Positions 4,883-57,199 are shown, numbered from the stretch's first letter. The stretch: 64,000 nucleotides of DNA from Euglena gracilis (GCA_039621445.1 CP154954.1:39331816-39395815), one strand, 5' to 3'. The notes: generated by a model not told the origin, from the letters alone. A program made the numbers and translations.

Positions 4883-5050
4883 GTTACCGCCCGGGGTCGG
4901 TTCGGTTATTAGCTTAGTTGTTGGCTGTGGGGTGGTACGGGTAACTTACCCTGCTTGACAATTCACTGGTAAAAAAAATTCTTCGGAAAGAAAGAATGAG
5001 AAGAATTAATGATAAAAGAAAATAAAACAATATGGGTTTCCCATGAGTTC

Positions 5051-8036
5051 TCAAAAACTTGTTACAGAAACATAAGTTTTATGCTTCTTGTTCCACAGCT
5101 TCCACTCTTGCTGGACATACCCAACAAAACTGGTTGCTGGCTCCCAAGTGTCCTCCTCGGGCCCATACCCTTTCCAGCGGACTTTCCAAAGGTGCATACC
5201 TTTATCGAGTTTGTGATGGATGATTTTATCGACTACAAAATCGTCCGTCTCAGGTAATCTGGGACGGGGCTTGAAATGCAAGCACGGGATGGGTATCCCA
5301 TCCGGTTGTGACAGGTATGGTTTGCAGTCGTCCATATGAACGTCCTCAACACCATTCGGTAATGCAACCTTATATCGCCAGCTGGTACCTAGTCTTTCTA
5401 AAATTTCACAGGGTCCGAGCCAAGGGGGGTCCAGCTTGGAAGGCCCGCATGCGAGTACGGCTACTCCGTACCCACACGCGGTCACCGGGACTATACACAG
5501 GTGACTTGAAATGCTGCAAAAACGATTTCCGTTTATTTGCATGAATATCAGTTATTCGCTTCTGGACTGCAGAACGTACATTTTCTACTTCCGCAAACCA
5601 GGTCTCGCAAATGACACTCTTTCGGTCGGGTCTCTCCGAAGGGACATCCCATATAGCCGGAGCGTCCCGTCCGAAAACTAGTTTATAGGGGGAGTGAGGT
5701 AAAACCAGCCCTGGTAAGGTACTGATATAAAACAAAGACCATGGTAGCACTGATATCCAGTTGCTGCGCGAGTCAGCCAGTGAAAGGCGAAGCACATTCA
5801 CGACGGATTTCACGGCTGCCTCGGCTCTACCATCGCCTTTGGGTCGGTATATAATGGAAAAATGTTGCTCGATTCCGAGTAAACCGCATAAGGTGGTGAA
5901 AAACGTTGAAGAAATCAAATGGTGTTGATCACTCAAAATTTCATTCGGTAAAGCATTTATGCAAATGCATTTCTCCAAAAATATAACCGCCAAACTTTGG
6001 GCAGTCAACCCTGACTTCTGGCGTGGAATGGCTACAATGTACCCACTCCGCCGGCAGACGACAACAAAAACGTAATCATAATTTTTGTCGTCTGTTCCTT
6101 TGCACGGTTCTAATTCCAGAAAATCCATGCAGAGGGATGTAAAACTGTCAGGGGGTACGGGGAAAAAGTCCATCGTATTAGGGGGGTACCTCTGCGGGGT
6201 TTCACCGCTTGACAAATTTGACACCGTGGTGCTCTCTGCAAACAGCGTGAGTAGAGCTCTTTTTCGAGCAGGGTTGTACATTACCTGCGGTTCACCAACG
6301 AGAGAAGTTTGGGGGCCCCAGGGTGACCATGGTTGTGATAGCACAAAATCACATCATCAACCAGGTCCTGGGGGATACAATATTTGTAACCCGATTCATC
6401 GCGAAAAACCAACCGTAAAGGTGAAAGAGTGTAATTTTTCAGCACTTCGCCATTGCGAAGTCTGGTGAAAGTGGTGTCATACACCGGATCACGACTATAA
6501 TACAATTCACGAAAGAAAAGTGGGGAAGGGGACTCCGTGCGCGTAATACGCCGAGGTCCGGACGTGCTTCCACGTCGGCGCCTTCCGTGCACTGCTGCGA
6601 CCAGGAATGGTTGTGAAACGGGAAAATAATCCAAAAGATTGTCCGCATCGTCGTTTTGACGTGCGTACTCGTCAGCTTCCTGACTTCCATGAAAAGTCGC
6701 GTCTCCGTCATCCGGGTTCCCAGGTTAATACCAAGGGGCCCGACTGAGCGGATCCGCTACTTTTTGTGTATGACCAGGGGTATAAATGACAACAGGGTTG
6801 AACTGACTCAAGAACTCATGCCATCTGCATCGCCTTCCGACCGATGACATGGTTCAGATCCTCGGTGTACCAGTGTTGGAGACTCTCATGATCGGTCTTG
6901 ACGAGGATTTGGACGAGGCTGCTGGCAACCCAGCTTCGGAATTTCTGGACTAAAAGCACGATTGCGTAGGTTTCCTTCGCGCGGGTACTCCGTTTGACTT
7001 GACCTTTGCCGTCATCGCCCTGTAACTTTCTGCTGAAGAAAGCTACAGGTCAGAGTTCATTTGCCGCATTATGCTGACTAAGAACTCCGCCAACAGCGTA
7101 ATCACTGCTGTCGTATTCCAGCACATGGGGTTTGTACGGGTCCGCGATTTCGAGGACAACATTCTCCAAAAGCAAAACCTTGATTTTCTCAAGGGCCTCG
7201 CGCATTTGGTCATCCCAAATGACTTTGGTGTTGTCAACAGCCCGGTTTTTGAGCTGTTTGGTGAGGGGCACCGCGATTTTGGCGAAGTCCCTCATATAAA
7301 TCGTGTAGCATTGGGCTAATCCCAAAAATCTTTTGAGGTGAGGAATCGTTTTGATTATCTCAGGGTTCCACTTCTTAATGGCTTCTGGTTTGCTTGCCGC
7401 GGCTTTCCGCTGTCCATTGGTGAGGATGTGTCCGCAAAATTTTATAATTTTGCGAAACAGATTCATTTTCGCCCCTTTCGCGAAAAGCATATGTTTCAGA
7501 AAAAAGGTTAAGACCGCGCAAACATGGTGGAAGTGTGTGTCGAGGATATCCTCGTTCGATTTTAAGGATGGTGGTGGTCTTCCTACCAGCACATCATCAA
7601 TGTACACAGTAGCGAACGGTAAATCGCGTAAAAACCATTGAATCATCCGTTGAAACATGGCTGGGCCATTCTTAACACCCATGGGGAGTACTGTCCATTG
7701 GTACACACCCTTCGATGTCACGAATGCCGTGTATGATTGGGAGTCAGGGTGCAAGTGAATTTTGTGAAAGCCGTCATCCAGATCGAAAATTGACCACAAA
7801 CGGTTTTCCGATTGCTTGGTGATCAGATCCTCGATCAGGGGGAGCGTTAAGTGATCATACCTTGTTTGGGAGTTCAGATACCGGTAATCCAGCACCAGCC
7901 TGCATTTCTTCTGACATGATGGTTCTGGGGGTTTAGGAACGACAAATGCCTGGGATGTCCACTCGCTTTTCGAGGGTACCATCCATTTGCGCTGAATAAA
8001 CTTCTCACTCCTTTCATTGAGAGCCTGTTCGCGTTC
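5051..8036 (-). pseudogene. pol: pol of copy A: RT, RNase H, integrase, chromodomain (disrupted)
   Basis: RT motifs RLVLDYRYLN, LPMGVKNGPAMFQR, YIDD; RNase H DSSDYAVGGVL; integrase YHNHGHPG, MDF, SDQ, AE; GPY/F-like WLGPCEI; C-terminal chromodomain. Confidence 0.93.
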
Positions 8037-8064
8037 TCCTGGGCAACCCCCCTCAGCCTTCATT

Positions 8065-8066
<2 letters not shown>

Positions 8067-8126
<60 letters not shown>

Positions 8127-8128
8127 GC
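8067..8128. repeat. (TG)n microsatellite
   Basis: Directly visible. Confidence 0.97.
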
Positions 8129-8559
8129 GAGCGTTCTCCAAAAGCGTGCACATCTGCATGTCTGTAGATTATATTGCAACCTGAGGGAGGCAACAACCTC
8201 AAAAATGACCCTTCAGTGACCCCTGCAAACACCACGCTGGGGTTGAGGTGGGGGTAAACCATGCTTCCATTCCACCATCATATGCCCCCCCCACACACGT
8301 GTCCATCGCAGCGTTCAGTGCACACTCCTGGGGGTGCGTACTAGCGTCCACGGTTGAGGGCAACCCAGAACCGGTGAGATGCCGCGGGGGGGAGCAGGGG
8401 GCACTGAATTGGCTGCGATGGCAGCTGCAACAGCACCATGGCTCAAGGGTGCACTGGAGGTGGTTGTCGAGTCCAGGCCGGCCTGAGTGCACCGAGGGGG
8501 GAAAAAACAAAACAAAATTCTTAGAAAAAATTCTCGTCGTGACGCAGGGGAGATGGGCA

Positions 8560-13370: not shown

Positions 13371-15252
<1,882 letters not shown>

Positions 15253-19493: not shown

Positions 19494-19805
19494 AGTGTAC
19501 GTCTGATTCCCAATTCCCCTTTCCCAATTCCCAAAAGCCTTCGCTTTCGCCTTGGCGCACCTACTTGGGAACTGAAAATCAGAGTAACAGAAAACCCTTT
19601 TCCCACTTCCCAAGAAGCAAAGCACAGAGCAATGCAGGGAGGATGGACTGGACATCCAAGTCCGGTCTGGAGAAAAGGAAGACAAACAGAATAAAGAATA
19701 CCACCTGTGGAGAGAGAAGGGGCACCCATTAGGAAATCCTAATAGGATCTGCTTCCATCCTAACTTCCTCAACGGAAGGGGACAGAAGCATACGCCTGGT
19801 ACACA
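19494..19805 (-). repeat. 3' LTR of copy B
   Basis: Direct repeat of 35889-36204 (about 8 substitutions and 3 small indels by eye); element-strand ends TGTGTAC...GTACACT. Confidence 0.92.
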
Positions 19806-19815
19806 TCCCCCTCCC
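19806..19815 (-). promoter_or_regulatory. Polypurine tract (PPT)
   Basis: GGGAGGGGGA immediately 5' of the 3' LTR on the element strand. Confidence 0.88.
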
Positions 19816-20294
19816 AGGGCTATGCCCGATTTCCTCTTTGGACCAGGCATTCTGGCCACAGGCCTTTCGGACACAGACCTGGTCTGTTGGAGGTGCACCC
19901 TGGCGCATCCACAGGGGCCCTTTCCGTCGCACAGGGGTCCACTCAAAAAGGGGGGCGGAAAGGAGGGGGACCCAAAAGCCCAAAACGCGCAAAATGGTTT
20001 CACCTACTTTGCGGTGGCTTATGGGTGTATAGTATACTATAGCCCACTGGTGAAAATGGGGCTGGCAGGTTTCCTTGCCAAGCAAACCCATCCACCCAGT
20101 TTGGGTGTGCTAAAGGCACTTGGGGTTGGTCCATGGGCATTCAGGGAATACCCATGGGGAGGGTGTGGAAGGAGGGGGCCTCTGACCAGTCAAACCTGGG
20201 CAGGGCGCATGGCCAGTCAAACCTGACCACGCAAAAGAAAAGTCCTACTCTACAAAACCAACTGCCGGCGACAGCATTTGTCCGGGGGGAAAGT

Positions 20295-20472
20295 AGAGAG
20301 GAGTGGGGGGTTGGCTTAGGCCAGAAAAGGTGCTGTCTCGCAGCCTTAAGGCCTCAAACGGCCGAAAAGAAAAAGGGAAAGGAAGAGAGGAGTGGGGGGT
20401 TGGCTTAGGCCAGAAAAGGTGCTGTCTCGCAGCCTTAAGGCCTCAAACGGCCGAAAAGAAAAAGGGAAAGGA
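20295..20472. repeat. 89-bp tandem duplication in the 3' UTR of copy B
   Basis: agagaggagtgggggg...aaagggaaagga occurs twice in tandem. Confidence 0.9.
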
Positions 20473-20714
20473 AAGAAAAGAGGCCTTCCCGCCCTGTGCG
20501 CTGCGTGTCGCACGCCCGCGAGAGGGGAGAGGGGAGAGGGGTGTGCATGCATGCGCACGGAATCCTGCACATGGCAGCATCCCGGTGGGAACTTACTAGC
20601 AGCGAATACCGCAAAGGGTCTTCGAAGGGTTGCTCGGGCGAATACCCGAACAAGGGTTCAGGCGAATACCTGACGAGGGTTCTGAAAGACGCCGCATTGG
20701 CGCTGACAGACACC

Positions 20715-23700
20715 TCACCTGCCTCTATCGGCTGGGCGTTCGCGTACCTCACGCCAGTAGTCGTGTTGAGGGTCCCCTAATGGGACCTCGACCAACTCCA
20801 GTTGGCGTGGGGAACGTGGTGGAGCTGATTCACTCCGAATGGTGTTGAGCTCCGGATCGTTGGCATCAAAGGAAGGGGTCTCCCATTCCTTGATCCAACT
20901 GTCCGGCAGTTTCTCCCTGGTACGGTCAGCATGATGCTGAAGGTACCGTTGGAGGTGCTCCCAGAAAATTCTGGGCAGCATCACCGGCCAGATAATGTAA
21001 TTCATCCGGGGGTGATTCGCAGGCACCTGCGGGGGCATCCCCGGGGTCTGCTTGAAGTTGACGTCATACGCCCACCTCGCTGTCCGAGCTCTTGCGGTAT
21101 GGGGCCGTAATACAGCCGCCAACCAACCTCTGAAGTCCACCAAATCGTGTTCTTCAGGAGGCCGCAGTGGCAAGGCGTATCCGCCATGCTGACGCCTGGA
21201 GAACAGGGGGTAAACCTGTGTCTCCCAGTCGCCATCAGTCCAGAGGTAAGGCACTCTTACCCTGGCGTGTTCCTCGACGGCGAGGCGCATTGCCCCAGCG
21301 TCGATCTGGTATTCACGGGCCATTCCCGTGTGGCGGTAGCTTTCTACCTTTCGGAAGTCAGAGTGCTTCAGGCGTCCTTCCACGTGCTTGTACTCCTTCT
21401 TCCACTTCTCCAGTGTCTCCCAATGCTGGGGGACAATGGTGGTGACTGCACCATCGGCAGTCTGCACGAACTTGGCACTCATACATTTGATGCACAAGGC
21501 AGGGATATCCCTGTCGTGAGCATTCCCACTGTAGGAGTAGTTCAAGTTGCGCTTCCAGGCGTTCAGGCACTCGCCACATACGAGCGCCACACAGTTTGGC
21601 ACAAATGCCCTGTGATGGAACGTCGTGGATTGAACCTGCCGCTTGCACACATGCAAAAGTGCCTGGTTGTGCCGCACATGGTGGCACACGGTGCACGTCC
21701 AGGCAAAGGTCGTGCCTTGCAGGAAATCCAACACGCAGTCCTCACCGAAGTACTGTGCCAGTACTCGGGGTGAGCGCCTGTTCCAAAATGTCCAGGTGTG
21801 TTCCGGGACATAGTGGAAAGGTTCTCCTCGGACGAAGAGGGGCTGAATCCATCGATTCAGTGCCCCTTTCTGGTGCCGAATAGCAGCCAGCTTCCTCGTC
21901 CTTTGTTCCACGGTGCCTAGGCTGGTCAGGATATATTGAGTCCAGAGCTGGGCATCCGCAGACACGGGAGGTGAAGCAGGTTCATCCTGCTCCTCATCCG
22001 TCGAACCGGCGGAAGATTGGGTCTGTCGACCACGAGCCTTACCTTTCGGTTTGCTCTGGCCGTACCCGGACGATGCAACGGCCGAATAGTCCTGCATTGT
22101 CGTAGGGCCTTTTGGCTGTCCGCCAGTCTGGCATCCAGCGCCACCTTTCGGTGGTGGTTTCCCATCACCGCCTTGGACGGGGGGCTTACAGGGTGCAGCA
22201 CCCGGCTTGCCTCCTTTCGGCTTCGCACTCCCGGAATCAGGAGGCGATGGCTGCGGCTTACTCCTGGTATCAGGAGCAGGTTTTGCTGGAGCAGACGATT
22301 GTCGTCTGGGCGAAGCGGGCATCATGACCGCTGGATCGCGCATGACGCTCCGAGGCGTTGGTACCCGTTCCTGGGGTTGTTCAGCCGGCGTCCGTCGAGC
22401 AGGTTCATCCTGCCCGTGGGGGCGTGGGACTGTGGTTGTCACCGGAATCGGTGCTTCCACAGGCGCTGACACTCCCGGAAACTCTCCCATTGTCATCGGG
22501 GTGTCAGAGGGTCTGCGCGGTGTCGGTGGTCGTGGGGGTATTTCCTCCACTTCCATTTCGACGTCTGGCCGAGGAGGTTTATCCTCCACAACCGCTGGCG
22601 CAGGTGCTACTGGAGGTTGATCCTACGTCGTAGCCGTCACGACAGATGGCTCTGTCGGCTGGGGTTCATCTCCTGATGGTGGTTGCACTGATGCCGGAGA
22701 TGGGGGTGCGGGGACACCGACATCTGGTATCTCCACGACCTCGGCGGCGGAGCTTGATGCTACGCCTCCACCTCGTGGCGTTAGTGCAGCAGCCACGGCA
22801 GTAATGCCAGTGACCACAGCGCCAAGTACTCGGCCTCCTAATGAGGTTCGTGCTGTGGGGCTGGCGGGTTCCTCGGGGATATCCTCGACGACCACACCAG
22901 TCACCTCGGCTTCAGGCTCAGCCGTCGACACAGGCGCTGCAGCCATAGGTACATCCCCTATGGGTGCTTCGTCTGGCCGAGGCTGTGCCGGAGTAGGCAG
23001 AGCAGCGTAGAGGATATCCTCGACGTTCTCGCCTTCCTCCTGGGGGAGTTCCTCGTCTCCACCTGTCGGTGGACAGACGGGAGCCGTCGCAGGGGCCCGG
23101 GAAACTGATCGTTCCCCTGCCACTCGCGGGGCAGAGACGAAGGACACTGCCGTTCCTGTCGGAGACGGCGGCGCTGCCTCCAGAATGGTGACGGAGGGGC
23201 TGCGTTCGCGTTCCTCCCGCCGCGGAATCGCGGTGGTGGAAGCGACGGACGCCTCACGTCTCCTTCGCGCCAGAGGTTCATCCTCCGGGGCGATGAAGGC
23301 GCGCAGATCCTCGAGTGAACGAGGATCGTCGGGGTGCCATCGGCATCCTTGAGCATCCGCCAGCACGTAAAAGGCCAGCGTGCTGCTGCTGGGGCGGTTG
23401 GGCCAGGGTGGTGGCCATGATGGCTGCACCCACGCATTGGCAGGCCTGTTGGGGCTCAGGAATCCGCGGTAACGCGTGTCTTCCCAGACCTCGAAAACCC
23501 CTTCCTCGAACTCCTGCACGCATGCCAAAATCGGCATACCCAGGTCGAGGATGGCCTTCGGGTAATTCATCAGCTGGAGGAATACCTCCCGGTCGAGGGT
23601 ACCGCCAAACTGTCGCCTCAAAAGTTCTTCCAGGTCGATACCGGCCAGGTGCCAGTTGGGGCGCAGGTCGGCGATGACCCGACGACGACGAGGTCCCTCA

Positions 23701-26241
23701 ACGGGGTCGCCGTAGTCTGGTGGCAGACTTTCCATACCTGGTCCATCGTCCTGGGGGTCACGGAGACGTATATACACCTCCATGACGTAGGTGGTCCAGG
23801 CTCGCCACCAGAACTGCTGCAGCATAAGAATACGCTGCTTGTGGACGCGGCGACTTCTGCCCTGGACATCCGGGGCGTCGCGGCACACATGCATAAGCAT
23901 GCGGCGTCCCATCTCCAGGCCCGGGTTATCCCGAGGCGGTGGAGGGCTTCCACGCACGCCGAATCCCCAGAAGTCGACAGTGAATTCCCTCCTGCCATTT
24001 ATTACAACAGAGGTCATACCTCTGTGGGTAAGCCAGGGAAACGCGCTGAACGCGGAAGGTTGAGCCGTAATGGCTCACCAGCCGCACCTGGAGGTTGTTC
24101 CACCACAACACCTCAATCAGGCGTCCTACTTCGGGGTGCAGTGGGAAGTATCTCCACTGGACTCCGAGGGGTCCTACTGAATGGATACATTCGAAGTAGG
24201 CCTTCAGCATCCGGGCCAACACCTGCTGGTCCCGGAACGCCAGTCCCAACTGGTGCAGATAACTGCGACCAGTGGAGTTGCTGAAGAGACCCCAGTTCTG
24301 GCAGGGGTATCCCAGCCAAAACCATAGCTCCAAAAAGCCCGGCTGGGCATCCAGAAAAGGTCTGCCACCTTCACCTTCGAAGGCGTACAGATCTATTCCG
24401 TAATGGAATAGTCTGACTCTGTTCTCGGTGTGGTGTAATACCACATCGATGACTGTCTCTGGAGGAGTGACGGGGCGGTTTCCTGCAACATGGTAATCAT
24501 GCTGCATTCGCCAGCCTTCGTCTTCCAGCTCCTCCTTGAACCTGAGCATATGCTCAAAGTCCGAGAGGACTTCTGCTGGTTCTTCCTCCTGCTCACGGGC
24601 TGTACCCTTACCCTTGCCCTCACCTTTGCCTTTGCCAGCCACGCCTTTGCCTTCTCCCTTGCCTTTGCCCTCAGCCGTACCTTTGTCCTTCCCCGTCTGG
24701 TAAATACCAGCGGGTCGGGCGCTCGGTGCGGCAGCAGTCGGTTCGGTACCTTCCCATTCCTTCTCTGGGGAGGGGCCTTGCCGTTCCGCTGCACGTCGCG
24801 GTGATGGCGTGGCTGGGCGCTGGCTAGGAGCCTGGCGTGGGCTTGGTTTCGGCGTAGGGGGTCGCAGCTCCTTCCATACCGGAGGGATCGGCGGTGGCAT
24901 GGCGTCAGCAGGACGGCTCATCGCTGCCTGTGCCTCTGCCGGTGGTTGTCTAGCCAGGGTATCCTGGCTGGCTTCCACCTGCATTGCCGAACCGCCTTCC
25001 GCGTCCCTTGGGCTGGGTCGCCTGGGCTGTGGGGTAAGGTCCTCCGTAGCCCTATGGCGCTTCAGGGTGGCAGGTAATCCTGCCGCTCCTGCCGGGGGCT
25101 CACCGGGTAATACCGGGGTTGCCACCCGCAGCTGCGGTTGGTACGGATGGTATGGGGTGTATCCACGGCCCTGAAGGGCAGCCAGCGAAGAATAATACCT
25201 CGCCCGGTGCTCTTCAGACGCGAATACTGGCTCCTGCAGGAAATGCCGAGCAAGTTCATCCTGCTCGGTTCCCGGAGGTGCCATGTGGTAGTAGGGAGCC
25301 TCCTGCCGACGCGGGACATCCCCGGTTTGGACAGGAGGTGCACTGGGCGGTCGGGTTGCCGCACGGTGGAGAGGTTCATCCTCCACCACTATGGGCTCCA
25401 CCTGCCGCCGTGGCTCAACGCCAGGGGCAGGGGCGACCGGTGATGCCTGTGGCATCCGGTGCGTGAACATGTGTTGGACGTATGCCTCAGGGGGCACGTC
25501 CAACTGTCCGGCTGGGAGTACGTGTGCGCCACGTGGGTAGTCCGCGTGCGTCGCGTACTGCGGGGCAAATTGCTCTGCTGGCGGCTCGCGCAGCGGCGTT
25601 CGCTGCGGCGAGGGCGGGCGAGCAAATATTCTCGTCATCCCAGGTGGGACATGCACAGCCTCACCTACCGGTGGGGGCGTGTGCTCACGCATGTGCACGG
25701 TGTGGTATCCCACCGGCGTCTGCGTTTGCAGCATGGGCGGCACATACACGCCCAGGTCCATCCCGGTCTCGCCAGGCTCAAATCCGGAATCGGATGCCGA
25801 CGAGAAATACCGTCTCCCTGTCATCAGGGCCTGACCACAGGGACACCACTGAGCCACAGGGGTGTTGGCTACCACCAACAACTGAGCGCAGTATGCATCC
25901 CAAAGGGCTTGCATAAAGGGCTCCGTTGGAGGGCGTGCGCACATACGCATCGCCCGCTCCAACGTCTCCGTAGTGTGGAAGATCATCTCTCCCGCATACA
26001 GGGGCAGCCGCAATCTGCGCTGCACTGGTGGCTGGGGTGCCGGCTGCTGGACGGCTGATGGATCTGGTACCGCATATGCGGACCGGCTGCTGGTAGCCGC
26101 GGCGAATACCGGGGCTGGACCCCTTTCAGCATGTGGGGCACCCGGAATCGGGACCTCACCATACTCAGGGTACTGGGAGTATGGTGCGCCCGGAGGCTGC
26201 GGCCATGGTGGACCTGGTCCTGGTCCGCGCCCAGGCAGCAT
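20715..26241 (-). pseudogene. Accessory ORF of copy B (~1,840 codons; one frameshift, one in-frame stop); Pro-rich linkers, conserved Trp-rich domain, RING-like Cys cluster
   Basis: ORFs 23926..26241, 22623..24017 and 20715..22589 join: the last two are in frame across a TAG at 22623-22625, and the ~23990 frameshift is continuous in copy A (AYPYRYKLECPFCEEVHTVDFWGFG). Confidence 0.8.
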
Positions 26242-26434
26242 GATGCTCCCCGAACGACGACGACAACGAAGGATAACCTTGTTGTCAGTCGCTTTGAGTG
26301 CTAGGCACTGAAAAAGAAGATGCTTCTATCCTTATCAAAAACTGTGTGAGAAAGACAGAAGATGCAGTGCAGGGGGGGGGTATAAACGCGGAACATTCAC
26401 ATAAAACACACACATTCTCCAAAACGAAATCGTT

Positions 26435-29400
26435 TCAGAAAGTGTTTATGTTTATGTCTATGTTATTGCGCTTGTTCCACAGCTTCCAATCCTGTTGGAC
26501 GTATCCAACAAAACTGGATGCTGGCTCCCAAGTGTCCTCCTCTGGCCCATACCCCTTCCAGCGAACTTTCCAGTAGTGCACACCCCTGTTGACCTTGTGG
26601 TCTATTATCTTATCAACCACAAAGTCGTCCGTTTCAGGTAATCTGGAACGGGGCTTGAAATATAAGCAGGGGATAGCTTTTCCGTCTGGGGGGCTTAGGT
26701 ACGGTTTGAAATCGTCCATATGGACGTCCTCAATCCCGTTGGGCAAGGCAACTTTACATCGCCCGCTACTTCCTAACCTGTTCAAAATTTCGCATGGGAC
26801 GAGCCAAAGAGGATGTAGCTTGGAAGATTGCATGCGGGTGCGGTTATTCCGTACCCACACGCGGTCACCTGGACTATACACAGGTGTGTTGAAATTTTGT
26901 AAAAACGATTTCCGTTTGTTGGAATGAATTTCTGTGATAAGTGATTGAACTGCAGAGCGGATTTGATTCCACTTCTGCAAACCACGTTTCACAGCTAACA
27001 CTACTTCGGGCGGGTCTCTCCGAGGGGATATCCCCTATGGCCGGAGGGTCTCGTCCGAAAAGAATTTTATACGGTGAGTGTGGTAATACCACCCCTGGCA
27101 AGGTATTGATGTAAAATAAACACCAATGAAGAATGGATATCCAATTCTTACCCGAGTCAGCCAGTGAAAGGCGTAGCATATTGACAACAGATTTCACGGC
27201 TGCCTCAGCTCCACCGTTGCCTTTCGGGCGGTATATAATGGACAAATGCTGCTCAATACCGAGTAAACCGCACAAAGTCGTGAAAAACCGCGACGAGATC
27301 AAGTGATCTTGATCACTCACTATTTCGTTCGGTAAACCCATTAAGCAGATACATTTTTTCAGGAATATGGATGCCAAAATTTGGGCTGTCAACCCTGCTT
27401 TCCGGCATGGAATGGCTACTATGTACCCACTCAGCCGACAGACGACAACAAAAACGTAATCGTAAATTTTGTCATCTGATCCTTTGCAAGGTTCGAGTTC
27501 GAGAAAATCCATGCAGAGGGACGTAAAAATGTCCGGTGGTACGGGGAAAGAATCCATCGTACCAGGGGGGGTACCTCTGCGCGGTTTCACAGCCTGACAA
27601 ATTGGGCACCGCTGCGAAATTCGCAAACAGCGCGAATATAAATCTTTTTCACTCAGGGTTGTGCAATATCTGCGACCCACCAGTGAAAGAAGTTTCAGGG
27701 CCCCAGGGTGACCATGGTTGTGATAGCTCAAAATCACATCATCAACCAGGTCTTGGGGTATACAATATTTATAACCAGAAGCATGCCGGAAGATAGGTCG
27801 CAATGGTGATAGAGAGTAATTCTCTATGGACTCACTATTACGGAGTCTATTCACAATGGTACTATATACAAGGTCACGCGAATAATCCCATTCGCGGAAA
27901 AATAGGGGGGTAGGAGTTTCCGTACGCGTAATGCGACGGGGTCCGGCAGTGCGTCCACGCCGGCGCCTTCCACGCAATGGTGAAATGGCAATGCTGCGAT
28001 ACACCCGGGAAACGGGTAGTGAGTCGAGCATGTTGTCCACAGCGTCGGATCGACGTGCGAACTGGTCAGCCCCATGGCTGCCATGAAAAGTCGCATCACC
28101 CTCATCCGGGTTCCCAGGATAATACCAGGGGGCTCGGCTGAGAGGATCCGCCACTTTTTGCGTATGACCTGGGGTATAAAATACCACCAGGTTAAACTGG
28201 CTCAAGAACTCATGCCATCGGCATCGTCTGCCAACTGATGACATGGCCTTGTTCAGGTCCTCGGTATACCAGTGTTGAAGGCTCTCATGATCCGTCAACA
28301 CCAGTATCTGGACCAGGCTGCTGGCTATCCAGCTGCGGAATTTCTGGAGAATAAGCACAATGGCGTATGTCTCCTTTTCGCGAACGCTCCGTTTAACCTG
28401 TCCTTTGCTGTTGTCGCCGTGTAGCTTCCTGCTAAAGAAAGCCAGAGGTCGGAGTTCATTCGCCACATTATGCTGTCTAAGAACCCCGCCAACAGCGTAA
28501 TCGCTGCTGTCGACCTCCAGGACATACGGTTTGTATGGATCCGCGATATCGAGAACCACGTTCTCGAGGAGCAAGTCCTTGATTTTATTCAAGGCCTCGC
28601 GCATTTGGTCATCCCAAATGACTTTTGCGTTATCGGGTGTCCGATTTTTGAGTTGTCGGGTTAGGGGTACCGCGATTTTCGCGAAATCTTAGATGTAAAT
28701 CGCGTAGTATTGGGCTAATCCCAAAAATCCCTTTAAATGCGTTAAGGTCTTAGTGACCTCAGGAGTCCATTTCTTAGTGGCCTCCATCTTGCTGGGTGCG
28801 GCTTGACGCTGCCCGTTGCTCAGGATATGCCCGCAAAACTCAACAATTTTGCGAAACAGGTGCATTTTGGAACCCTTCACAAAAAGCACATTGCTTTTTG
28901 AACGCGGATAATACCGCCCGCACATCGCGATAATGCGGTTCGAGGATATCCTTGCCCGATTTCGCGGATGGCGGTTGGGTTCCCACCAGTACATCATCGA
29001 TGTACACCAGAGCGAACGGTAAATCGCGCAAAACCCACTGGATCATGCGTTGAAACATGGCTGGGCCATTCTTAACACCCATAGGGAGTACCGTCCATTG
29101 GCACACACACCCTTGGATGTCACGAATGCCGTGTACGGTTGTGAATCGGGTGCAAATGCATCTGATGAAAACCGTCTTCTAGATCAAAGATTGACCACAA
29201 CCTGTTATCCGATTGTTTGGTGATCAAATCCTCGATCAGCAGTAACGGGAAGGGGTCATCCTTCGTTTGGGAGTTCAGGTACCGGTAATCCAGCACCAGT
29301 CTCCACTTCTTCTGACCAGACTGGTCAGCGGGTTTGGGCACTACAAAAGCTTGTGATGTCCATTCGCTCTTGGAAGGGATAATCCACTTCCGCTGGATGA

Positions 29401-31565
29401 GCTTCTCAATCATCTCGTTGAGAGCTTGTTCGCGTTTAACCGAACAACGGAAGAATTTCCGGTGCATGGGCTTAGCGCCATCCTTGAGCTCGATTTTGCA
29501 AACACCGAACAGAACGCGAATCGCGGGGTCGATGTCGCAGGCGTAAACTGGGTTATCCAGTACACCATGGAATTCGCGAGTAAAACGCGAACAATAGTCA
29601 GCAGACTTGGGGTGTTGGTCCGCACTCTCAATAACCGCCAGAAATCTGCGTTGAGGGTGTGGCATCCCCATTGGTACCAAGGTATCTTGGCACACGCAAA
29701 TCGGATATACCGAATGTGTCAAAGAAACAAACGCGAAAAATGATTTCTTTAACAGGTGGTAAAAATATACCACAAAAGTCCTCGAATAGTGGTACATCAG
29801 CGGGTAAATCCCACCAATGAAAACAGACATAGGATAGTTGATGAAACCAATGCGCATTCGGATTGACGGGTATGAGGAGAGATCCTCGCGCTTCATCGCG
29901 GAGGATTTTCTCCACCACATCCGGAAGAAGTTTTGGGGGAGGGTTCAACCAAAGCACCGTATCACCCAAAAATTTAAGGAATGCGTTGGAGTGTCGCGAC
30001 CAATGTCGCGAAAAGCGTGCATGCGCTTGTGATGAAAACGCATCAATTTCCAACGACAAATCGAAGGAATCAGCCAAAGCCGCGATTTTGGAGAACCATT
30101 CCTCCAAAATACGGTATTGACCAAAATTAAATGCGTTCCATACGCGTATCGCGTATGTATCGACCTGGTTTGCGGGTTGAAGAGCGGTAACGCAATTCAG
30201 GGAACCGCAAACATAGGCCAAGGGTGTGTCATCCACACTCCCAAGGGGCATTCCCAAGGAATGATGGGTTGGATGGGTGCATACCCAGGCCATAACATGC
30301 CAGATGGAGGTGGTGGAGGTGTGTGACACGGATTTCGCGGTCCCAAACAACAAGGCAATACCTCGTTGTTGTAGCACTTGATGCACGGTCGCTCATTCCA
30401 ATCCGCAACCAAGTGTGTGGTTACGCGAAATCGGGATTAGTGTTGGTGTTTGGACTAGACATCCACAATCGAAATCTGGATGGGCGTCAATTCTCCTACA
30501 GTGCACACATTGGAAGGAAGTTTCGGAGTAGTGGTCCTGGTCGCGCATGTTGGTCTGGTGGGGGTGTGTGTGAAAGTTGGAATGCGCGTTTGTAGCTGCT
30601 GGGGGGTGTACAGATGTATCTGAAAGCGATACATCTGGTGGAAAACGGGGTATTGGTGCAGCTGGGCGACTACTCGACACCGTAATTACTTCAGGCCTTT
30701 GGGCTTTCGTCTTGTAACCCAGTGGAACGAGGGGTACCGCTACTTGCTTGCCCTGCCTCGTGGGGAACGGAAGTTGGTGTGTGGATGGGCAGGGGGTGAA
30801 CTCTCTCGGTACACCCGGTGTAGAAAACGTTGGTAGGTGTGGTTGGTAACGGGGTAAAAGTTTTCGAAAACTGTGTGCAAAAATTGGTGGCTGTCGTGGT
30901 TGACGCCACGGGTGATGAGGGTTTGGGGGGCAATGAAGAGAACGGTGATGTGCGGAAACCGTGGAGGGGCAATACACTACCAGCCGGTGCTGACGTAAAA
31001 AGGGGCATCCCAGAATTACGTCAGACCCATGCATTCCGGATTCTTATCCCCAGGTATCCGGAAAATTTTGCGGTTGTGGGGGGTGTGAGTGGTGCTTGGG
31101 GATGAGGGGTAGGACTAAGTCCAAAATGCATCACAAGTCACCACCGCACATGGGGGTGTTGTCAGCCGTCGTTACTTTGATCGGCTTCTTGGCTTTCACC
31201 AAGAGGGTGGTCGGTATCAACCCGAACCCAAAAAGTAGTGCAATGCGGCAACCAGTGTCAATGAGAATTTTGACTTTTGCACAAAAATTTTTGGGTTTTG
31301 ATTTCCGCTTGGACCATAAGTTCCATGGGGGGTAAGCAAAGTGAAGGGTCTGGCGAAAATACGTTTTCTTGCCAGCTTTCCCATGAACCCTTTCCTACTT
31401 TGCACAAAAATTCCGAGCGGAAAGTTGTTGTGGGGGGTGGGGGACCCGAAAATTTTCCGCGTACCGACCAGGAAGGCAGATGGGCAGGGGGGGGCAGGGT
31501 TGATCAGGTCCTACCTCCATCTGTTCATCAGCCCAGAGGTCCGTGCCCTCCGACCTCGGGCTCCC
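26435..31565 (-). pseudogene. pol: pol of copy B: protease, Dam-like MTase, RT, RNase H, integrase, chromodomain (disrupted)
   Basis: LIDTG (~31260) and DVILGCPFL; WRLVLDYRYLN; YIDD; VDSSDYAVGGVL, EKETYAIV, TDHESL, VADPLSR; YHNHGH..CPIC; MDF/SDQD/AE; chromodomain. Confidence 0.94.
29715..30125 (-). other. Dam-like DNA N6-adenine methyltransferase domain within pol (between protease and RT)
   Basis: QYRILEEWF..EIDAFSSQAHARF..NAF....DTVLWLNPPP..VVEKILRD..LLIP....HWF follows the DAF/NA/NAF/WxNPP/LxxP..W pattern of DIRS-type and phage Dam MTases. Confidence 0.75.
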
Positions 31566-34500
31566 CTACTCCAGGTCCGAACCGGCCGAATAGCCGGCTA
31601 TGGGCCTTTTAGAGGTAAAAACGGATTTCAACGTGCGCACCGCCATGCGGGCGTCGTCAAAATCGGTATCCGTGGTCTCATCCCCCTCCCTGCCCGAAGC
31701 CGGGGTGTCATCCTCCAAACAAGATACCTTGAAACCGACTTTATGGCGGTTGGAGGAGTGACCCTTGTCACCGCGATTCATACCGCGATGACGTTGGCCA
31801 GAGCGGGGAGAACGAGAACGCGGACATTTGGATGAGTGGTGACCACTCGATCCACAAAGCGAACACCGAGATTTGTGTCGCGAATATGGATAACGGGGGG
31901 ATCGGTTTCCCGATTTCCCGTCAAACCGTCGTGGTGACCGGGTATCCCGTCGACCATGACCGGTGTATCGGGGTTTTCCCAATCAGGATCGCGAAGAGGA
32001 TGATCCGCTTCGTGAACGCGATCGCGATGTCTCGCGATAAGGATCACGCTTCTTGGCAGGGGCACCGGGTGACCTACCCCGAGGGGTACCGTGTTTCCGC
32101 TCATCGCGGAACGGGATCCGGGGGCTAATACCACCGGAACGGGGACCCGATGACCGTGAATTACCCGATTGGCGTGAAAACGCGGAGGAATCCAAACCCC
32201 GTGATGAGGTCGAGCCTCGCGGACTCTGACCACGCTTTTGTGCTTCAGGGTTAGGACATTCCCGAGACATATGCCCCGATTTGTTGCACAAAAAGCACAC
32301 TTTATCCGTGGCTTGGTCCGAAGAACGCGGGTATCGCGTTTTCGATACCGTGTTTGGTGAAGTGGGTGAAACCGGTGATTTTTGCAATGCGTTCACCGAA
32401 CCAGCCGGTAATCCCGCGGTTGGGCGTACGGTATACGCGGATTGAATCTGACCAAGGAGCTGTGATAGCTTCAACTGCTTGGAAACGTAATTCCAGCGTT
32501 GGTCAAGAGTCATGGGATGACTCGCCAACTCCTCACGGTGGATATCCTTGAGGAGGCTAGGCGTGAATGCATGAGAACAGCGTCAAACTGTTCGCGCATT
32601 TGCTTTTCACTAAGTTCATCAACTTCAACAGCAAGACCTAACCATTTGGCATACCAATGGTCAATGCACTTCCACTTGCGATCTGGTGGGGCGCATTGCC
32701 GATACTTGGTCTCTAGGGTAATCCTAGCGACCAAACTTGAACTGGTGGAAGCGTATTGCTCCACCAGGTCATCAAAGGAAACGCGATAGCGAATGACGAG
32801 TTGTCGCGCGCGCTCCTTCTCATCCCTTGGCAGGCAATCGTTGAATTCCATCGTGAGCACCTCCGGGTTTGTGTCCTGGGTTGCCCCTTCAATGCCCAGT
32901 AATACTCCCAGTCCCGGAAAAACTGTCTCAATGTGGTTGGATCACCGTCCCACTGGGGTTTCACCTTGTTCGCGATTGCGACGGTGCCTTTGAAGTCTTT
33001 CTGAGAAACCCAATGACCCTCGGTGGTATTCCGTGGAATCGGGCCCGGGTACGCTCGAGCACCAAGCGTATCCTTTCCGGATTCTTGTCGGAATAGCGAA
33101 ATTTCTGGTGAAGGTGAATCCTGGTACCGGAAATCCGTTCCCAAACCCTGTTGGTCACCCGTAATAGGGGGACACTCCGGTGTGGGGGTATGTCGCGCAT
33201 GCAACATGTGACCCACTCCCGGTGTACAGGTTTGGCTCATTCCACGCACAAGCATGGAATGATGGATTTCTTGGTGGAGACTTGGCGGAATCGCCGTGTT
33301 TTCCGAAAATTCGGTTCCCTTAAAATTCATCCGAAAACTGGTTTTGGGTTTTGGGCAAGGCCAATGGTGGCACAATTCGCGGAATCGCGGGTTGTGACAC
33401 AGTCGGGACACGGGTGGTGGTGGTGCATGTGCACCTAGATTCGGGTTGTGAAAACGCGAATCTGGAACATTTGGCGAATCTTCGGCAATGCATACTGCCG
33501 AATTTCGGTGTGAAACCCGCTGTTGGTTGGACACATTGTCCAGACCCACAGACAAGTCATGCACAGCTTTGCTCCAAATGCTCAACGAGTTGCAGTTGGC
33601 CGCAAATACGGTCAACCTCATCCTCCAAAGCGCGAATACGCTTGCGGTAACGGGAAAAGTCATCCAAGTGCGGAATCCTTTCGGAAATTCCGGTGACATC
33701 TTGGACAAGTTTCCCGTGAGACTCATCCAGTAATTGGAGTTGTCCCGTTAATGCTTTTACAGCTTTTGAGAGAATCTGCAAAGGTGGTGTCACCTCGGTT
33801 GGTGTGGTAGTGGGTACAACCGGTGCAGGGTCATCCGACAACGTGTTGTGGTACCCACGGGCAAATTTCCGGGTTGTGGCTTATCCAAAAACGCAAATTC
33901 GCTCGTCCAACCTGGTAATCTCACCATGCGTGGATCGGGCATTCCGATTCACCGATTCTTCAAGCCGTAATAGGCTGTTGCAAAAATCTTGCAAGGTTTC
34001 CTGATTGTCGGTGAGCATTTTGTCATAAAATGCCTTGAAATTAGGTTTCTAGTTCTTGGTAATCCGTGAACTGGAATCTGCTGGCAAAGACTGCATTTCC
34101 GTTAATTTGGTAGACACCGATGCATACCGGGTCTGGAGTTCCCCAATAGCTGTCTGAATACCGCTAATGTCCGGAACTCGGTGGGAAAGTGCGGAATAGC
34201 TTTGTTGCAAACCCGCAATGGCCGAGTTAATCCCGCCAACGTCGGACTGCAACTGCAACTGCAGGGATTCCTGCCGTTGTTCCATTTCCGCGACTTTCGC
34301 GCTCAGATTGGATAATCCAACCTGATTCGCGTCACAATAGCAGGTTTTCTGCTCAAAACGGGAAAGTCACTCCTCCAACTGCCGCACATACGTGTGGGGA
34401 GCAAAATTCTCGTTGGCTTGTGACTGGAATAGCCGAAAATTTACCGTTTCATCGCACAACAGCATAATGCGGTGTTGCGATTCATGGAAAGTTGCGGATA

Positions 34501-35542
34501 GGGTGGTGAAATGGTCCATAGACACAAATCCACCAGTACTGGATGTTGCAGACGAGGAATCTCGTGCATGCAACTGTTGTTGCAAATGCAACAACGCGGA
34601 TGAACAGGACTCCATTTGTCCCGATAGGTGTTGTAGTGAGTCATGCAAGTGCAGAAACTTGGAGTCATTCCGCGTTTCCGCTTCATGCATGCATTCACTA
34701 ATTTGCCGGAAGTTCTGCGGGAGTTGTTGGCACATTCTGTCAAAGGTTTCCCGAAAGTTTGCAAGGTCAATACCCGCACTTTCAAAATTCCTCTGGCAAT
34801 ATTTGCCAACTTCCTGCAAGTAATTCCAGCAGTGTTCCAGCTTGGTGAAGACATGTTTCTGGCTGTCCTCATCAAACTGAAGCACTTTGTTCAGTGCGGT
34901 TGCACATTCTGCAACGCATTGTTGCACATGGTTGAACTGCCTCACAAGTGGGTGATCCCCTGGAAGCCGAGCAACGATATCCTGCACATCCTCAGCAGTG
35001 AGGAGCTCACCAGTGCCCTTCCCTTAGCCATCCATGGGTTGGGATGTACCGGAGAATTCCGGTACCACTAGACGAGTCTCCACTTGCCAAGGCAGTGCCG
35101 GATAGCACCCAAGATCGGGTGGTGGTGGCAAAGCTCTGTAAGGGTTTGCCGGTGGAAGAGCGGGTGGGGGTTGAAAGAAACACGGTGATTCTAGTCCACC
35201 ATCACCAGAGAAGCCCGGTGGCGGAATCACCACAGGTCTCTCTGGTGTATGCAGCTGCACCATTGCCGCAAACAGAGGCGAATACCCCCGTTGTGGCAAG
35301 GTGAGTGCGGAAGAGGCCGCATTGGCCTCTGAAGCCAATAATGTGGAGGGCTCATCGCCGACCACTGTCAATGATGACAATTGTTGCAGTCTTGACAATT
35401 GAGCCAATTTTGCCTCATCGGCGTGGGAACTGGAAGCACTTTCACATAAAAGCTTCCAAACCCCTGTTTCTTGGTCAATGTCTTGCAATGATGCCTGTAA
35501 TAAGGCATAGTTGAATTGATGGCTGGGGCCTGTGCTTTGCAT
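31566..35542 (-). pseudogene. gag: gag-like ORF of copy B (coiled coil, capsid-like region, two CCHC zinc knuckles, RS-rich)
   Basis: CFLCNKSGHMSREC and CSLCGSSGHHSSKC; PQWDGDPTT..FFRDW; lies between the PBS and the protease; several frameshifts and stops. Confidence 0.85.
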
Positions 35543-35731
35543 CTTTCTGATGGCAAAAACAACAAAAACCCACAAAACTAAGCAGTTGTGCTGGCACCAG
35601 AGGGGCTGTAACGGGTAATACCGTACAGAGCCTTCCGGAGCCTGCTCGTCTGCTTAGACGTTGACTAGAAGCCGGGAGCTGACGCTGCGACCGTGTAATA
35701 ACGGTGCAGGGGCCCTCCGCTGCCAGTCAGC

Positions 35732-35888
35732 GTAGGATCGAACCAATCTGCTACCAAGTGTAAAACCTGGAAGCTTTTCTTTCTGTGAAGTATGTGTAGG
35801 ATCGTAATCAAATCTGCTACCAACTGTAAAACCTGGTAGCTTTTCTTTCTGTGAAGTATGTGTAGGATCGTAACCAAATCTGCTACCA
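35732..35888 (-). promoter_or_regulatory. Three tandem primer-binding sites (tRNA-iMet-like), 66-bp period
   Basis: TGGTAGCAGA at 35879-35888 (abutting the LTR), 35813-35822 and 35747-35756, each followed by a GGTT(A)CGATCC-like sequence. Confidence 0.85.
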
Positions 35889-36204
35889 AGTGTACGTCTG
35901 ATTCCCCAATTCCCCTTTCCCAATTCCCAAAAGCCTTCGCTTTCGCCTTGGCGCACCTACTTGGGAACTGAAAATGAGAGTAACAGAAAACCCTTTTCCC
36001 ACTTCCCAAGAAGCAAAGCACAGAGCATTACAGGGAGGACGGACTGGATATCCAAGTCCGGTCCGGAGAAAAGGAAGACAAACAGAATAAAGAATACCAC
36101 CTGTGGAGAGAGAAGGGGGGCACCCATTAGGAAATCCTAATAGGATCCGCTTCCATCCTAACTTCCTCAACGGGAAGGGGACAGAAGCGTACGCCTGGTA
36201 CACA
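35889..36204 (-). repeat. 5' LTR of copy B
   Basis: Direct repeat of 19494-19805, followed immediately by the PBS on the element strand. Confidence 0.92.
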
Positions 36205-38560: not shown

Positions 38561-40123
38561 TTGCGTCATTGCGGGAAAAAAAAACATCAAGCCGGACTAA
38601 AACTTCGGGAAATGCCAATTGAACGTCAATGACAAACTTAGGAGAAAACAAACAACAAAAAACCAAAAATGTGGCAAAACCACCACCAAAGGGGACGCCC
38701 GGCAGACTGCTGCGGCAACGCTGGCCACCTTCTCCGCTGCGGCACGGCAGAAGGGGAAGGTCTGGTGGGCGGGGGTCGCCCCCCCCCAACCAATTTTGGG
38801 AAAACGGAAATTTTGGCCGGGGAAAACTGTTGAAATGCATGCTTTTTAGGTGAAGACAACAATTTTTCACAAAAATACTGGAAAAACATGGTTCAGAAAC
38901 TGGTACTTTTTGGAAAGGGGTTGAAAGAAACGAAAGACAAAAAAAAGTGAAGAAAAGCTTGGCACAATCAAATTTCACTGAGATTTATTCTCTTAAAAAA
39001 AATTTGGGATCCAGATATTGGTGCTCCTTGAAGTACAAGAAGGCGGCGGAGGGGGGGAGGAACCATCCACCGACCACCCTGGCTGTTTTGGCCGATTCCG
39101 GTTCTGCCCTACGCCGCCCTGCCGGCCCCCCGCGTCGATGCGGTGGCGGCGGCGGTGGAAGGGGGGGGAGGGTGTGGGCCGCCGGCGACGCGGGGACGTC
39201 CTCGCCCTGCACACCACCAAAGGAGTGACGGGGGGCACTGGTTCTCTGGGACGCAATGGCAAAAATGCCCTCCCGCCCGCCTGGTGCGAAACGCAAAATT
39301 ACTGAACATATGTTTCTTTTTGCCCCAGAAACAACGGGCAAATTGTGGGACGGGGATTGCCTCAATGCCAAGAACTTGGGGGGGGAGTGCCAAAATGTTG
39401 GACCAGCTGACCCCCCCAAACCCCATTAGCACAGGGTTCAACGGGCCACAAAAATGAAATCTTGGTAATTTTTTCTGTGTTAATCAGGGTGGGGGCGTGA
39501 TGGTCGTGGCCAGATTGCCCCAATGCCAAGAACTGGGGGGTGCCAAAAAAAAGGTGCCCAGCCCCCGGGCCCCGGTCGGCTGGGTTCCCCACCACCATAA
39601 CCGCTATTTTTGCCGGAACCGTTTGAACAAATGCCCCAAGGGCAATTGGGGGGGGGGGTCAATTGGGGGCAAACAGAAAAATGGCAATCGGTGAACTGGA
39701 TGAAATACTGGATCATTTTCAAGTGTGAGATTGAGGCAAATTTTCCAGGAAATGAACAGAAAAGATGTGGGTATTGGAAATTCGATCGAAGGGTGCAGAG
39801 GGGGTTGAGGTGTGCTCTTGCCCAAGGATGAGAGGTTAGCGAACATCCTCCACAGGGTTTTCCTTTTCCAGTTATCCCTCAGGGGAACGGCATCAAAAGC
39901 TTTATGACACATTTCACAAGATTTTGGTTCCCGACCAGGCTTTTGCTTAAGGACCCCCCGGGGGGGGTACCGGCTAGCCAATCGACAATACACTGGAAAA
40001 AGTGGACTAGCTAGACCCGCTCCCCCCGAGGGGGGGGGGTCCGGGGGTCCCCCGGACTGGAAAAATGAGGTTTTTAACAGGTTTTTGGCTGACTTTGTTC
40101 CACAAATTCCCATTCAAAAAATG

Positions 40124-57196: not shown

Positions 57197-57199
57197 TCA

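Follow-up and report, generated by a model that had tools for sequence, protein, structure and literature searches.

What is encoded by the giant reading frame that follows pol in a retrotransposon of Euglena gracilis, and does it belong to the element that carries it? The question is raised by a stretch of 64,000 nucleotides from this genome (GCA_039621445.1 CP154954.1:39331816-39395815), called here the window, in which a complete long terminal repeat (LTR) retrotransposon of the Ty3/gypsy chromovirus type, element B, bears downstream of pol the region treated below as its third open reading frame (ORF3). A preliminary description, made from the sequence of the window, had pointed to a very long frame right after pol and on the same (minus) strand, and such a frame does run from 26241 to 20715; the one ORF of ~1,840 codons that it proposed is not found as such and corresponds to three pieces taken together, of 799, 483 and 635 codons. 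The answer favored here, with a probability of roughly 0.6, is that ORF3 is the third gene of this chromovirus family, encoded by the element and once under selection. Element B is compared below with a member of a second subfamily at the beginning of the window (copy A). The parts of the frame in B are the following, D1, D2 and D3 being its conserved domains:

23929..26241, minus strand: ORF3 piece 1, 799 codons, open from 26325 to 23926, first Met at 26241; Pro-rich N-terminus, D1, Pro-rich linker, Lys/Gly (KG) repeat and first half of D2
23994..24003, minus strand: +1 frameshift between pieces 1 and 2, inside the conserved D2
22626..24074, minus strand: ORF3 piece 2, 483 codons; second half of D2, then a Pro/Ala-rich linker
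22623..22625, minus strand: in-frame TAG between pieces 2 and 3, inside the linker
20715..22622, minus strand: ORF3 piece 3, 635 codons from 22622 to 20718, stop at 20717-20715; linker and D3

Pieces 2 and 3 share one frame, and pieces 1 and 2 overlap one base out of frame. The frame break sits between AYPQRYDL and REFTVDFWGFG, where the spacing is 11 residues in copy A and also 11 in B if one base is skipped. Removing a 28-nt GT..AG stretch at the break as an intron would lose nine residues that are present in copy A; because the one-base skip preserves the spacing, the break is a frameshift mutation or an assembly error, not an intron. Neither frame is intact: that of B is interrupted once by the +1 frameshift and once by the TAG, that of A by several stops and changes of frame. 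The B copy of ORF3 is a pseudogene. The 799-codon frame was also compared with 500 shuffles of the same 5.6 kb, which gave a median of 197 codons and a maximum of 472.

The relative with which B is compared lies at the edge of the window and comprises the following:

1..4945, minus strand: ORF3 homologue of copy A, Met at 4882, located by tblastn and alignment; runs off the window
4343-4681, minus strand: D1 of copy A
~1921-3160, minus strand: D2 of copy A
2-646, minus strand: linker preceding D3 in copy A, 215 open codons without a stop (646 to 2), reaching the window edge
5051..8168, minus strand: 3' part of copy A pol (reverse transcriptase (RT), RNaseH, integrase, chromodomain), 78.5% nucleotide identity to B

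Copy A and element B are members of different subfamilies, their pol sequences being 78.5% identical over 2,970 nt, and both hold a homologous frame at the same place, so the frame is conserved in two diverged subfamilies as had been proposed. It begins after the pol stop at a distance of ~170 nt in A, with MLPGG..., and of ~190 nt in B, with MLPGR.... The poor nucleotide similarity noted earlier is real: blastn gives no A-B match in ORF3 of at least 150 nt at E<=1e-10. At the protein level, tblastn with the B pieces as queries against copy A gave four matches:

piece 1, residues 106-217, to A 4681-4343: 48.7% identity, E 5e-28
piece 1, residues 408-774, to A 3729-2599: 31.2% identity, E 2e-38
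piece 2, residues 31-244, to A 2580-1921: 33.5% identity, E 1.5e-26
piece 3, residues 127-205, to A 313-59: 44% identity, E 2e-6

All the motif islands on which the claim of conservation had been built (ELWFWLGYPCQN.G.F, HSVG.LG.QW.Y.P, AYP.RY, TVDFWGFG.RG, LQQ.W.RAW.TYV.EVYI and NNLQ) are found in the B-A alignment, the last of them in copy A only in a shifted frame, since the frame of copy A shifts and then returns around NNLQ. Copy A is far more strongly decayed than B, with five in-frame stops in the two longest A-B alignments; its RT is matched by Pfam RVT_1 at 7053-8168 (E 6.6e-22). A 915-bp duplicate of the 3' end of its pol lies at 648-1562, 98.2% identical to 5103-6022, ahead of the D3 linker, an insertion which suggests a recombinant or internally deleted pol-ORF3 derivative. 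This duplicate corresponds to the integrase/chromodomain end and is in frame with the ORF3 linker that follows (646 to 2), with one stop between them.

Selection was assessed on codon alignments of A and B by the Nei-Gojobori method (NG86), from the proportions of nonsynonymous (pN) and synonymous (pS) differences and the ratio omega (dN/dS) of the corrected distances:

ORF3 conserved blocks: 331 codons, 47% amino-acid identity, pN 0.366, pS 0.715, dS ~2.3 (saturated), omega ~0.22
pol, same A-B pair: 576 codons, 80% amino-acid identity, pN 0.115, pS 0.537, dS 0.95, omega 0.13

The preliminary description had supposed past purifying selection on a domain that it did not recognise and had held that a dN/dS near 1 in the conserved blocks would speak against it; the ratio obtained, ~0.22, is an upper bound because dS is saturated, and with pN at 0.366 against a pS of 0.715 over 331 codons the supposition stands. 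For the ORF3 blocks, bootstrapping puts pN/pS at 0.44-0.59; choosing the blocks by amino-acid similarity biases this ratio downward. A less biased check is the comparison of frames by tblastx, where the ORF3 frames come out on top with 538 + 380 summed bits and the other four frames reach 74-313. On this comparative evidence the ORF3 domains were once under purifying selection.

The element around ORF3 is well defined by its LTRs, primer-binding site (PBS), polypurine tract (PPT) and Pfam domains:

19494..36204, minus strand: element B, complete LTR retrotransposon of Ty3/gypsy chromovirus type, 16.7 kb
35889..36204, minus strand: 5' LTR of B, ~312 bp, TGTGTACC...GACGTACA, from comparison of the LTR pair with its ends read
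~35871-35888, minus strand: PBS-like TGGTAGCAGATTTGG, directly after the 5' LTR
26435..35653, minus strand: gag-pol region, itself frameshifted, from ORFs and Pfam
31983-32582, minus strand: Pfam zf-CCHC match of the coiled-coil/CCHC gag
29120-29944, minus strand: RT (RVT_1), Pfam E 3.5e-5, under the Pfam cutoff
26874-28688, minus strand: RNaseH and integrase (RT_RNaseH_2 at 6e-23, Integrase_H2C2, rve)
26435-27034, minus strand: chromodomain, PF00385 Chromo, downstream of integrase, E 1e-10, 41.8 bits against a cutoff of 25.1
19806-19815, minus strand: polypurine tract GGGAGGGGGA, just before the 3' LTR
19494..19805, minus strand: 3' LTR, pairing with the 5' LTR

The two LTRs (312 bp, 96.2% identical) are direct repeats with TG..CA termini, the 5' LTR is followed by TGGTAGCAGA..., and with the PBS and PPT they give B the terminal structure of a Ty3/gypsy LTR element. 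The order of pol by Pfam is RT, RNaseH, integrase, and the Chromo domain stands 3' of integrase as in chromoviruses. ORF3 fills the interval from the pol stop (26435) to the PPT, that is, the position of env. No clear target-site duplication was seen around B. A 29-bp satellite (unit ~GCCATTTGCTTGCTTCGGCCGCACTAGCA) borders the element on both sides, at 18707-19492 and at 36203-38560, with more than 70 copies in the right flank; B was thus apparently inserted into a satellite array.

A sister of B in the same window allows presence and absence of ORF3 to be compared directly:

40122..48898, plus strand: element C, without ORF3; its gag-pol shares 93.4% identity with that of B across 8,041 nt
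20290..26374, minus strand: 6.1-kb segment present in B and absent from C, both edges at runs of cytosine
20286..20463, minus strand: two 89-bp tandem repeats in the 3' untranslated region of ORF3, ending at the cytosine run where C rejoins

Element C passes straight from pol (junction 48100-48104) to the 3' region and LTR, matching the sequence of B beyond ORF3. The segment was considered as a nested mobile element and this was rejected, as it has no terminal direct or inverted repeats. Because both A and B carry ORF3, the simplest history is that ORF3 is ancestral and was lost in C by deletion between the cytosine runs, and so clean a loss of 6.1 kb means that ORF3 is dispensable in cis for the persistence of a copy. 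Beyond 34386/40122, B and C match at 93% identity, and their 5' gag (coiled-coil) parts, 34386-35889 and ~39900-40122, are not aligned by blastn, a further sign of modular exchange within the family. Element C begins ~1.4 kb past the satellite, head-to-head with B, and its 3' region and LTR are tandemly duplicated (48189-48897 and 48898-49591, 82% identical).

Searches for relatives outside the window place ORF3 apart from all described families, as had been expected of it. The three pieces match no Pfam family at E<=0.01, and at E<=10 there is none for D2 or D3 and for D1 only a chance-level match to GAF_2 (E 0.18); the same searches (all pieces at E<=0.01, D2 and D3 at E<=10) include no envelope or fusion family. 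NCBIfam gave noise only, the PDB gave nothing by sequence at E<=1 (P0002 and P0003) and a best E of 0.41 by profile (A2, A3, A4), and Rfam gave nothing at gathering thresholds. Against 1.84 billion representative proteins, piece 1 found five matches at E<=0.001, all fragments of 85-367 aa, for which the source names no more than 'hypothetical protein'. Among them P0004, a predicted protein of 367 aa, is 91% identical to piece 1 and begins at the same start Met, and P0006, at 41% identity, is likewise built of a Pro/Gln-rich N-terminus with D1 after it. A word-index search found no match for D3 at near lengths and none for D2b at shorter lengths; for D3 at shorter lengths it found one, P0010 (eukprot:EG_transcript_25142), 90% identical over 230 aa, which begins at an internal Met just ahead of D3, aligned with residue 176 of piece 3. 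Two scans of metagenome contigs (72 pattern matches with A3, 226 with P0004) yielded no relative by tblastn, and two scans of viral contigs no ORF3 relative. Resemblances in the ESM Atlas, of D3 to RING-type clusters (0.81-0.82) and of D2a to unnamed giant-virus clusters (0.83), were set aside as chance, since shuffled proteins attain such scores in one third of cases. A dinoflagellate origin was likewise set aside: a spliced-leader motif gave a single match, with two mismatches, as chance would produce. Searches of the published literature, with Repbase, Dfam and the supplements of papers outside their scope, brought up for Euglena chromodomain elements only a preprint on DAM-LTR elements (bioRxiv 10.64898/2026.05.21.726589) and no account of ORF3. 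As far as these searches reach, ORF3 thus appears to be without a detectable relative outside its own family.

The anatomy of the protein, as read from composition profiles and the A-B alignment, is a Pro-rich N-terminus, D1, a Pro-rich linker of ~360 residues, the KG repeat, D2, a Pro/Ala linker of ~440 residues and D3:

25681..26028, minus strand: D1, conserved island of ~115 aa, 48.7% identical to copy A and 41% to P0006
24601..24708, minus strand: Lys/Gly repeat (GKGKGEGKG...), present in copy A too
23295..24588, minus strand: D2, central conserved domain of ~430 aa with ELWFWLGYPCQN, HSVGPLGVQW, TVDFWGFG and LQQFWWRAWTTYVMEVYI, split by the frameshift
20853..21980, minus strand: D3, C-terminal domain of ~375 aa, 90% identical to P0010 over 230 aa
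21480..21737, minus strand: Cys/His cluster in D3, C-x2-C-x12-C-x17-C-x4-C-x2-C-x25-C-x2-C, candidate two-zinc module

Proline makes up 13.2% and alanine 9.8% of the 1,889 residues, in agreement with the Pro/Ala-rich linkers described earlier. All eight cysteines of the D3 cluster are retained in P0010, and their spacing is possibly compatible with two zinc sites. The RING consensus has eight ligands in the order C-x2-C ... C-x(1-3)-H-x(2-3)-C-x2-C ... C-x2-C. A RING or PHD identity of D3 was rejected, because the spacing differs from this consensus and no Pfam RING/PHD family is matched at E<=10; at the same threshold no Pfam zinc finger is found in D3 at all. No obvious signal peptide had been seen, and the N-terminus, MLPGRGPGPGPPWPQ, indeed reads without a hydrophobic signal-like stretch. 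As to the transmembrane segment, likewise said to be missing, there is no clear anchor, but one borderline hydrophobic 19-mer does exist: the top 19-residue Kyte-Doolittle hydropathy is 1.60, at LGGRVLGAVVTGITAVAAA, which is Ala/Gly/Val-rich and lies at ~22780-22840 in a low-complexity linker. The pairing of N-terminal signal peptide and C-terminal transmembrane anchor that characterizes retroviral env is therefore not found in ORF3. The late-domain motifs P[TS]AP, PPxY and YPxL occur once each, which is chance level (265, 622 and 715 of 1,000 shuffles, respectively, reach the observed count). Neither internal repeats in ORF3 nor likeness to its own gag-pol or to other ORFs of the window were detected at E<=0.01.

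There are signs that ORF3 is transcribed. P0010 carries a transcript name whose EG_transcript_ prefix follows the nomenclature of the Euglena gracilis transcriptome paper (PMC6366073); this name, together with the Dam-domain ORF described below, points to E. gracilis or a close relative as the host. Four sequencing runs were compared at 90% likeness, three of them RNA, with 126, 87 and 380 reads on the 16.9-kb element. Reads of RNA run X24 fall in every one of the 30 bins, at a depth of 0.1-4.0 and in both orientations, those of X21 in 21 bins and those of X22 in 19; where a subgenomic transcript had been proposed, the RNA depth is 0-3.7. Because of the transcript name of P0010 and the X24 reads in all 30 bins, ORF3 is taken to be transcribed, at least weakly. 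The weak coverage agrees with the low expression of LTR elements reported for E. gracilis in a preprint (bioRxiv 10.64898/2026.05.21.726589). Reads of X21 and X22 pile up in pol/gag at 30265-30335 and 31492-31550 (10-18 reads); they agree in their variant letters, have long loose ends to either side and probably come from a host or chimeric transcript with a short fragment of a related element. In DNA run X1 the summed contig word depth, which is not a copy number, is ~0.45-0.65 million in ORF3 bins and ~0.64-1.37 million in gag-pol bins, or about two thirds, which suggests that many copies carry ORF3. Upstream of the ORF3 start, features read directly in the sequence, one in B and one in A, are candidate 3' splice or trans-splice acceptors:

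26308..26363, minus strand: two pyrimidine tracts ending in CAG, 26363 to 26342 and 26320 to 26308, 65-100 nt upstream of the ORF3 ATG
~4966-5030, minus strand: analogous pyrimidine tract/AG feature in copy A, likewise 65-100 nt ahead of the ATG

Put together, these features describe how the gene may have worked. The active ancestor of the element probably had ORF3 as a single frame of ~1,840 codons, placed between pol and the PPT, and the product of this frame would have been a soluble, non-envelope protein of three folded modules, D1 (~115 aa), D2 (~430 aa) and D3 (~375 aa, with the eight-Cys cluster), joined by long disordered Pro/Ala/Gly-rich linkers. Translation could have proceeded from a subgenomic mRNA, with the pyrimidine-tract/AG upstream of the ATG as the site of cis-splicing or of spliced-leader trans-splicing. 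The Cys cluster points to a module that binds protein or nucleic acid in a zinc-dependent manner, and the protein may have served as an accessory factor of the element dealing with host machinery, presumably with no part in entry or fusion. The role of an anti-silencing or targeting factor, which the preliminary description had suggested, finds no support in these results. The word 'cargo', also used there, is doubtful: two subfamilies carry ORF3 in one and the same position, and the searches brought up no parent gene in the host, so that ORF3 resembles a part of the element more than a passenger.

Several observations weigh against this reading. Beyond the similarity-based choice of blocks and the saturated dS already mentioned, the differences of B from P0004 and P0010 are even, 6.9-10.5% in domains and 5.1-9.9% in linkers, with no sign of recent selection, and sister C does without ORF3. 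A single giant ORF is a reconstruction, given the TAG in the linker before D3 and the start of P0010 at an internal Met. Single-sequence AlphaFold2 gave a mean predicted local distance difference test (pLDDT) score of 34.3 for D2, with the frameshift bridged by X, and of 34.6 for D3, values too low for a meaningful comparison of folds. Among the matches listed in the RNA runs there was no splice joint, start cluster or leader-like loose end at ORF3, the depth being too low to see one. Finally, of the fourfold-degenerate sites in conserved codons, 54/80 differ between A and B in ORF3 and 90/210 in pol (Fisher p=2e-4), the ORF3 value comparing with a saturation expectation of 0.73, and the GC content at third codon positions (GC3) is 0.48-0.59 in gag-pol but reaches 0.64-0.72 in the ORF3 domains of B and 0.55-0.67 in the pieces of A. 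Because both GC3 and fourfold divergence differ, the history of ORF3 is partly separate from that of pol: either pol modules were exchanged between lineages later than ORF3, or ORF3 came long ago from another source. Module exchange among Euglena retroelements has been proposed earlier (bioRxiv 10.64898/2026.05.21.726589).

The same base composition is one of the points in favor of a captured host sequence, the 6.1-kb segment being in that case a cellular gene, or a fragment of one, carried as a passenger without a role in the life cycle of the element. The higher GC3 of the ORF3 domains in B, the fall of A-B similarity exactly at the end of pol, a fourfold divergence greater than that of pol, the absence of the segment from C and the frequent domain exchange among Euglena retroelements (10.64898/2026.05.21.726589) would all fit. 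Capture is nevertheless unlikely, for a passenger would not be kept so long in the same position and orientation in two subfamilies, with synonymous sites saturated and pN well under pS; moreover, neither the 1.84 billion representatives (searched with piece 1 only) nor the word-index searches contain a host-like full-length relative, although the collection includes the Euglena transcript P0010, and terminal repeats are absent from the segment. Somewhat easier to entertain, if still doubtful, is a division into two or more accessory genes, in which the TAG at 22625-22623 would be a true gene end and D3 would have its own start codon (ORF4). That the TAG falls in a linker and not in a domain, and that P0010 starts just ahead of D3 (piece 3 residue 176), agree with this, but the equivalent linker of copy A (646 to 2) is open for 215 codons, the frame is identical on both sides of the TAG, and the start of P0010 may only reflect a truncated or decayed transcript.

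An envelope-like origin, with ORF3 a divergent envelope or fusion glycoprotein and the element a retrovirus-like infectious agent, has in its favor the location after pol and before the 3' LTR, where env would lie, and the one borderline hydrophobic stretch (Kyte-Doolittle 1.60); it is highly improbable, as that stretch is Ala/Gly/Val-rich, belongs to a low-complexity linker and barely reaches the usual threshold, and the protein has no signal-like N-terminus, no Pfam envelope family at E<=10, 13% proline and long disordered linkers. The suggestion that there is no gene at all, the long frames being a by-product of GC-rich (~62%) sequence, could appeal to the fewer stop codons of such DNA and to the ORFs of 204-287 codons on the opposite strand here; judged by the 799 codons against the shuffle maximum of 472 in 500 composition-matched shuffles, by the protein matches to copy A, which reach E 1e-26 to 1e-38 although synonymous sites are saturated, and by the lead of the coding frames in tblastx, it is effectively refuted. 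At the other extreme stands a speculative extension of the third-gene reading, held to be improbable, in which ORF3 would be the first member of a euglenid-specific family of host-manipulation proteins encoded by retrotransposons: a scaffold of ~200 kDa whose eight-Cys module in D3, a divergent RING/PHD-like zinc domain, would recruit or ubiquitinate host chromatin or silencing factors, with D1 and D2 as new folds and the mRNA made by spliced-leader trans-splicing. We know of no description of spliced-leader trans-splicing for an accessory gene inside LTR elements. If true, this would be a third route to the host epigenome for Euglena LTR elements, beside chromodomains and DNA methyltransferases.

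Other parts of the window have features of their own. Direct repeats of ~1.6-2 kb, 89-91% identical, lie upstream of copy A pol at 8064-10102 and 13540-15196 and are possibly the LTRs of another element truncating or nested in copy A; 32-bp tandem repeats occur at 10530-10742 and 11455-11590. A weak RT match (RVT_1, E 0.003) at 49914-50600 on the plus strand and long Gln-rich coiled-coil ORFs at 60969-63120 (plus strand), which resemble the coiled-coil gag N-termini of B and C, probably mark additional retroelements; all of the window thus seems to derive from repeats.

A third gene of this kind matters for several reasons. LTR elements are reported to account for 22-33% of the 2.37-Gb Euglena gracilis genome (PMC11252322). 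Very little is known of what they encode apart from gag-pol and the methyltransferases described of late. With a conserved accessory gene of ~5.5 kb, an abundant element family has to carry about twice as much coding sequence, and the three domains of this gene match nothing outside that family among the ~1.8-5.8 billion sequences searched. If functional, it would be a large selectable protein bearing on transposon persistence in a heavily methylated, trans-splicing genome; if merely a decaying lineage-specific ORF, it would be a useful annotation for sequences that are otherwise miscalled as orphan 'host' genes.

Compared with known systems, elements A, B and C share with chromoviruses the RT-RNaseH-integrase order, the chromodomain after integrase, the LTRs, PBS and PPT. 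To our knowledge, classical chromoviruses encode gag and pol only, and the giant third gene sets the present elements apart from them; among plant Ty3/gypsy lineages additional ORFs are known. With the env of retroviruses and errantiviruses ORF3 shares its genomic position and perhaps the manner of its expression, a candidate acceptor upstream of the start being what is expected of env subgenomic mRNAs, but it differs from them in having no signal peptide, clear transmembrane anchor or envelope family match. Within E. gracilis itself, EpiLTR and DAM-LTR are chromodomain LTR elements with DNA adenine and cytosine methyltransferase domains (bioRxiv 10.64898/2026.05.21.726589), and B has in common with them, as described in that preprint, a Ty3-like type, the chromodomain, extra coding beyond gag-pol and signs of module exchange. 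By Pfam, no Dam or DNA methyltransferase (DNMT) domain is found in ORF3 or in the tested pol ORFs of B, which is thus not an element of the DAM-LTR/EpiLTR type. The window does contain a Dam domain at another site (PF05869, E 1.6e-11, above the Pfam cutoff, 56305-56763, minus strand, with neighbouring ORFs at 56204-57348, minus strand), where it belongs to a different element, probably one of the DAM-carrying E. gracilis retroelements.

The closest parallel is with the LTR elements of bdelloid rotifers, which carry additional ORF3s that are not env (Rodriguez, Kenefick & Arkhipova 2017, PMC5408684). As in the rotifer elements described there, the extra frame is on the sense strand between pol and the 3' LTR, is lineage-specific and modular, and is present or absent among relatives. 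The rotifer ORF3s are recognisable as GDSL esterase, DEDDy exonuclease or paramyxovirus-like env (PMC5408684), whereas D1-D3 of Euglena match no family, and the frame found here, at ~1,840 codons, differs from them also in its length, which is about that of gag and pol combined. The ORF3 element of Euglena gracilis thus belongs to a known kind, the LTR retrotransposon with an additional ORF, and is unusual within it for the size of that ORF and for its three orphan domains.

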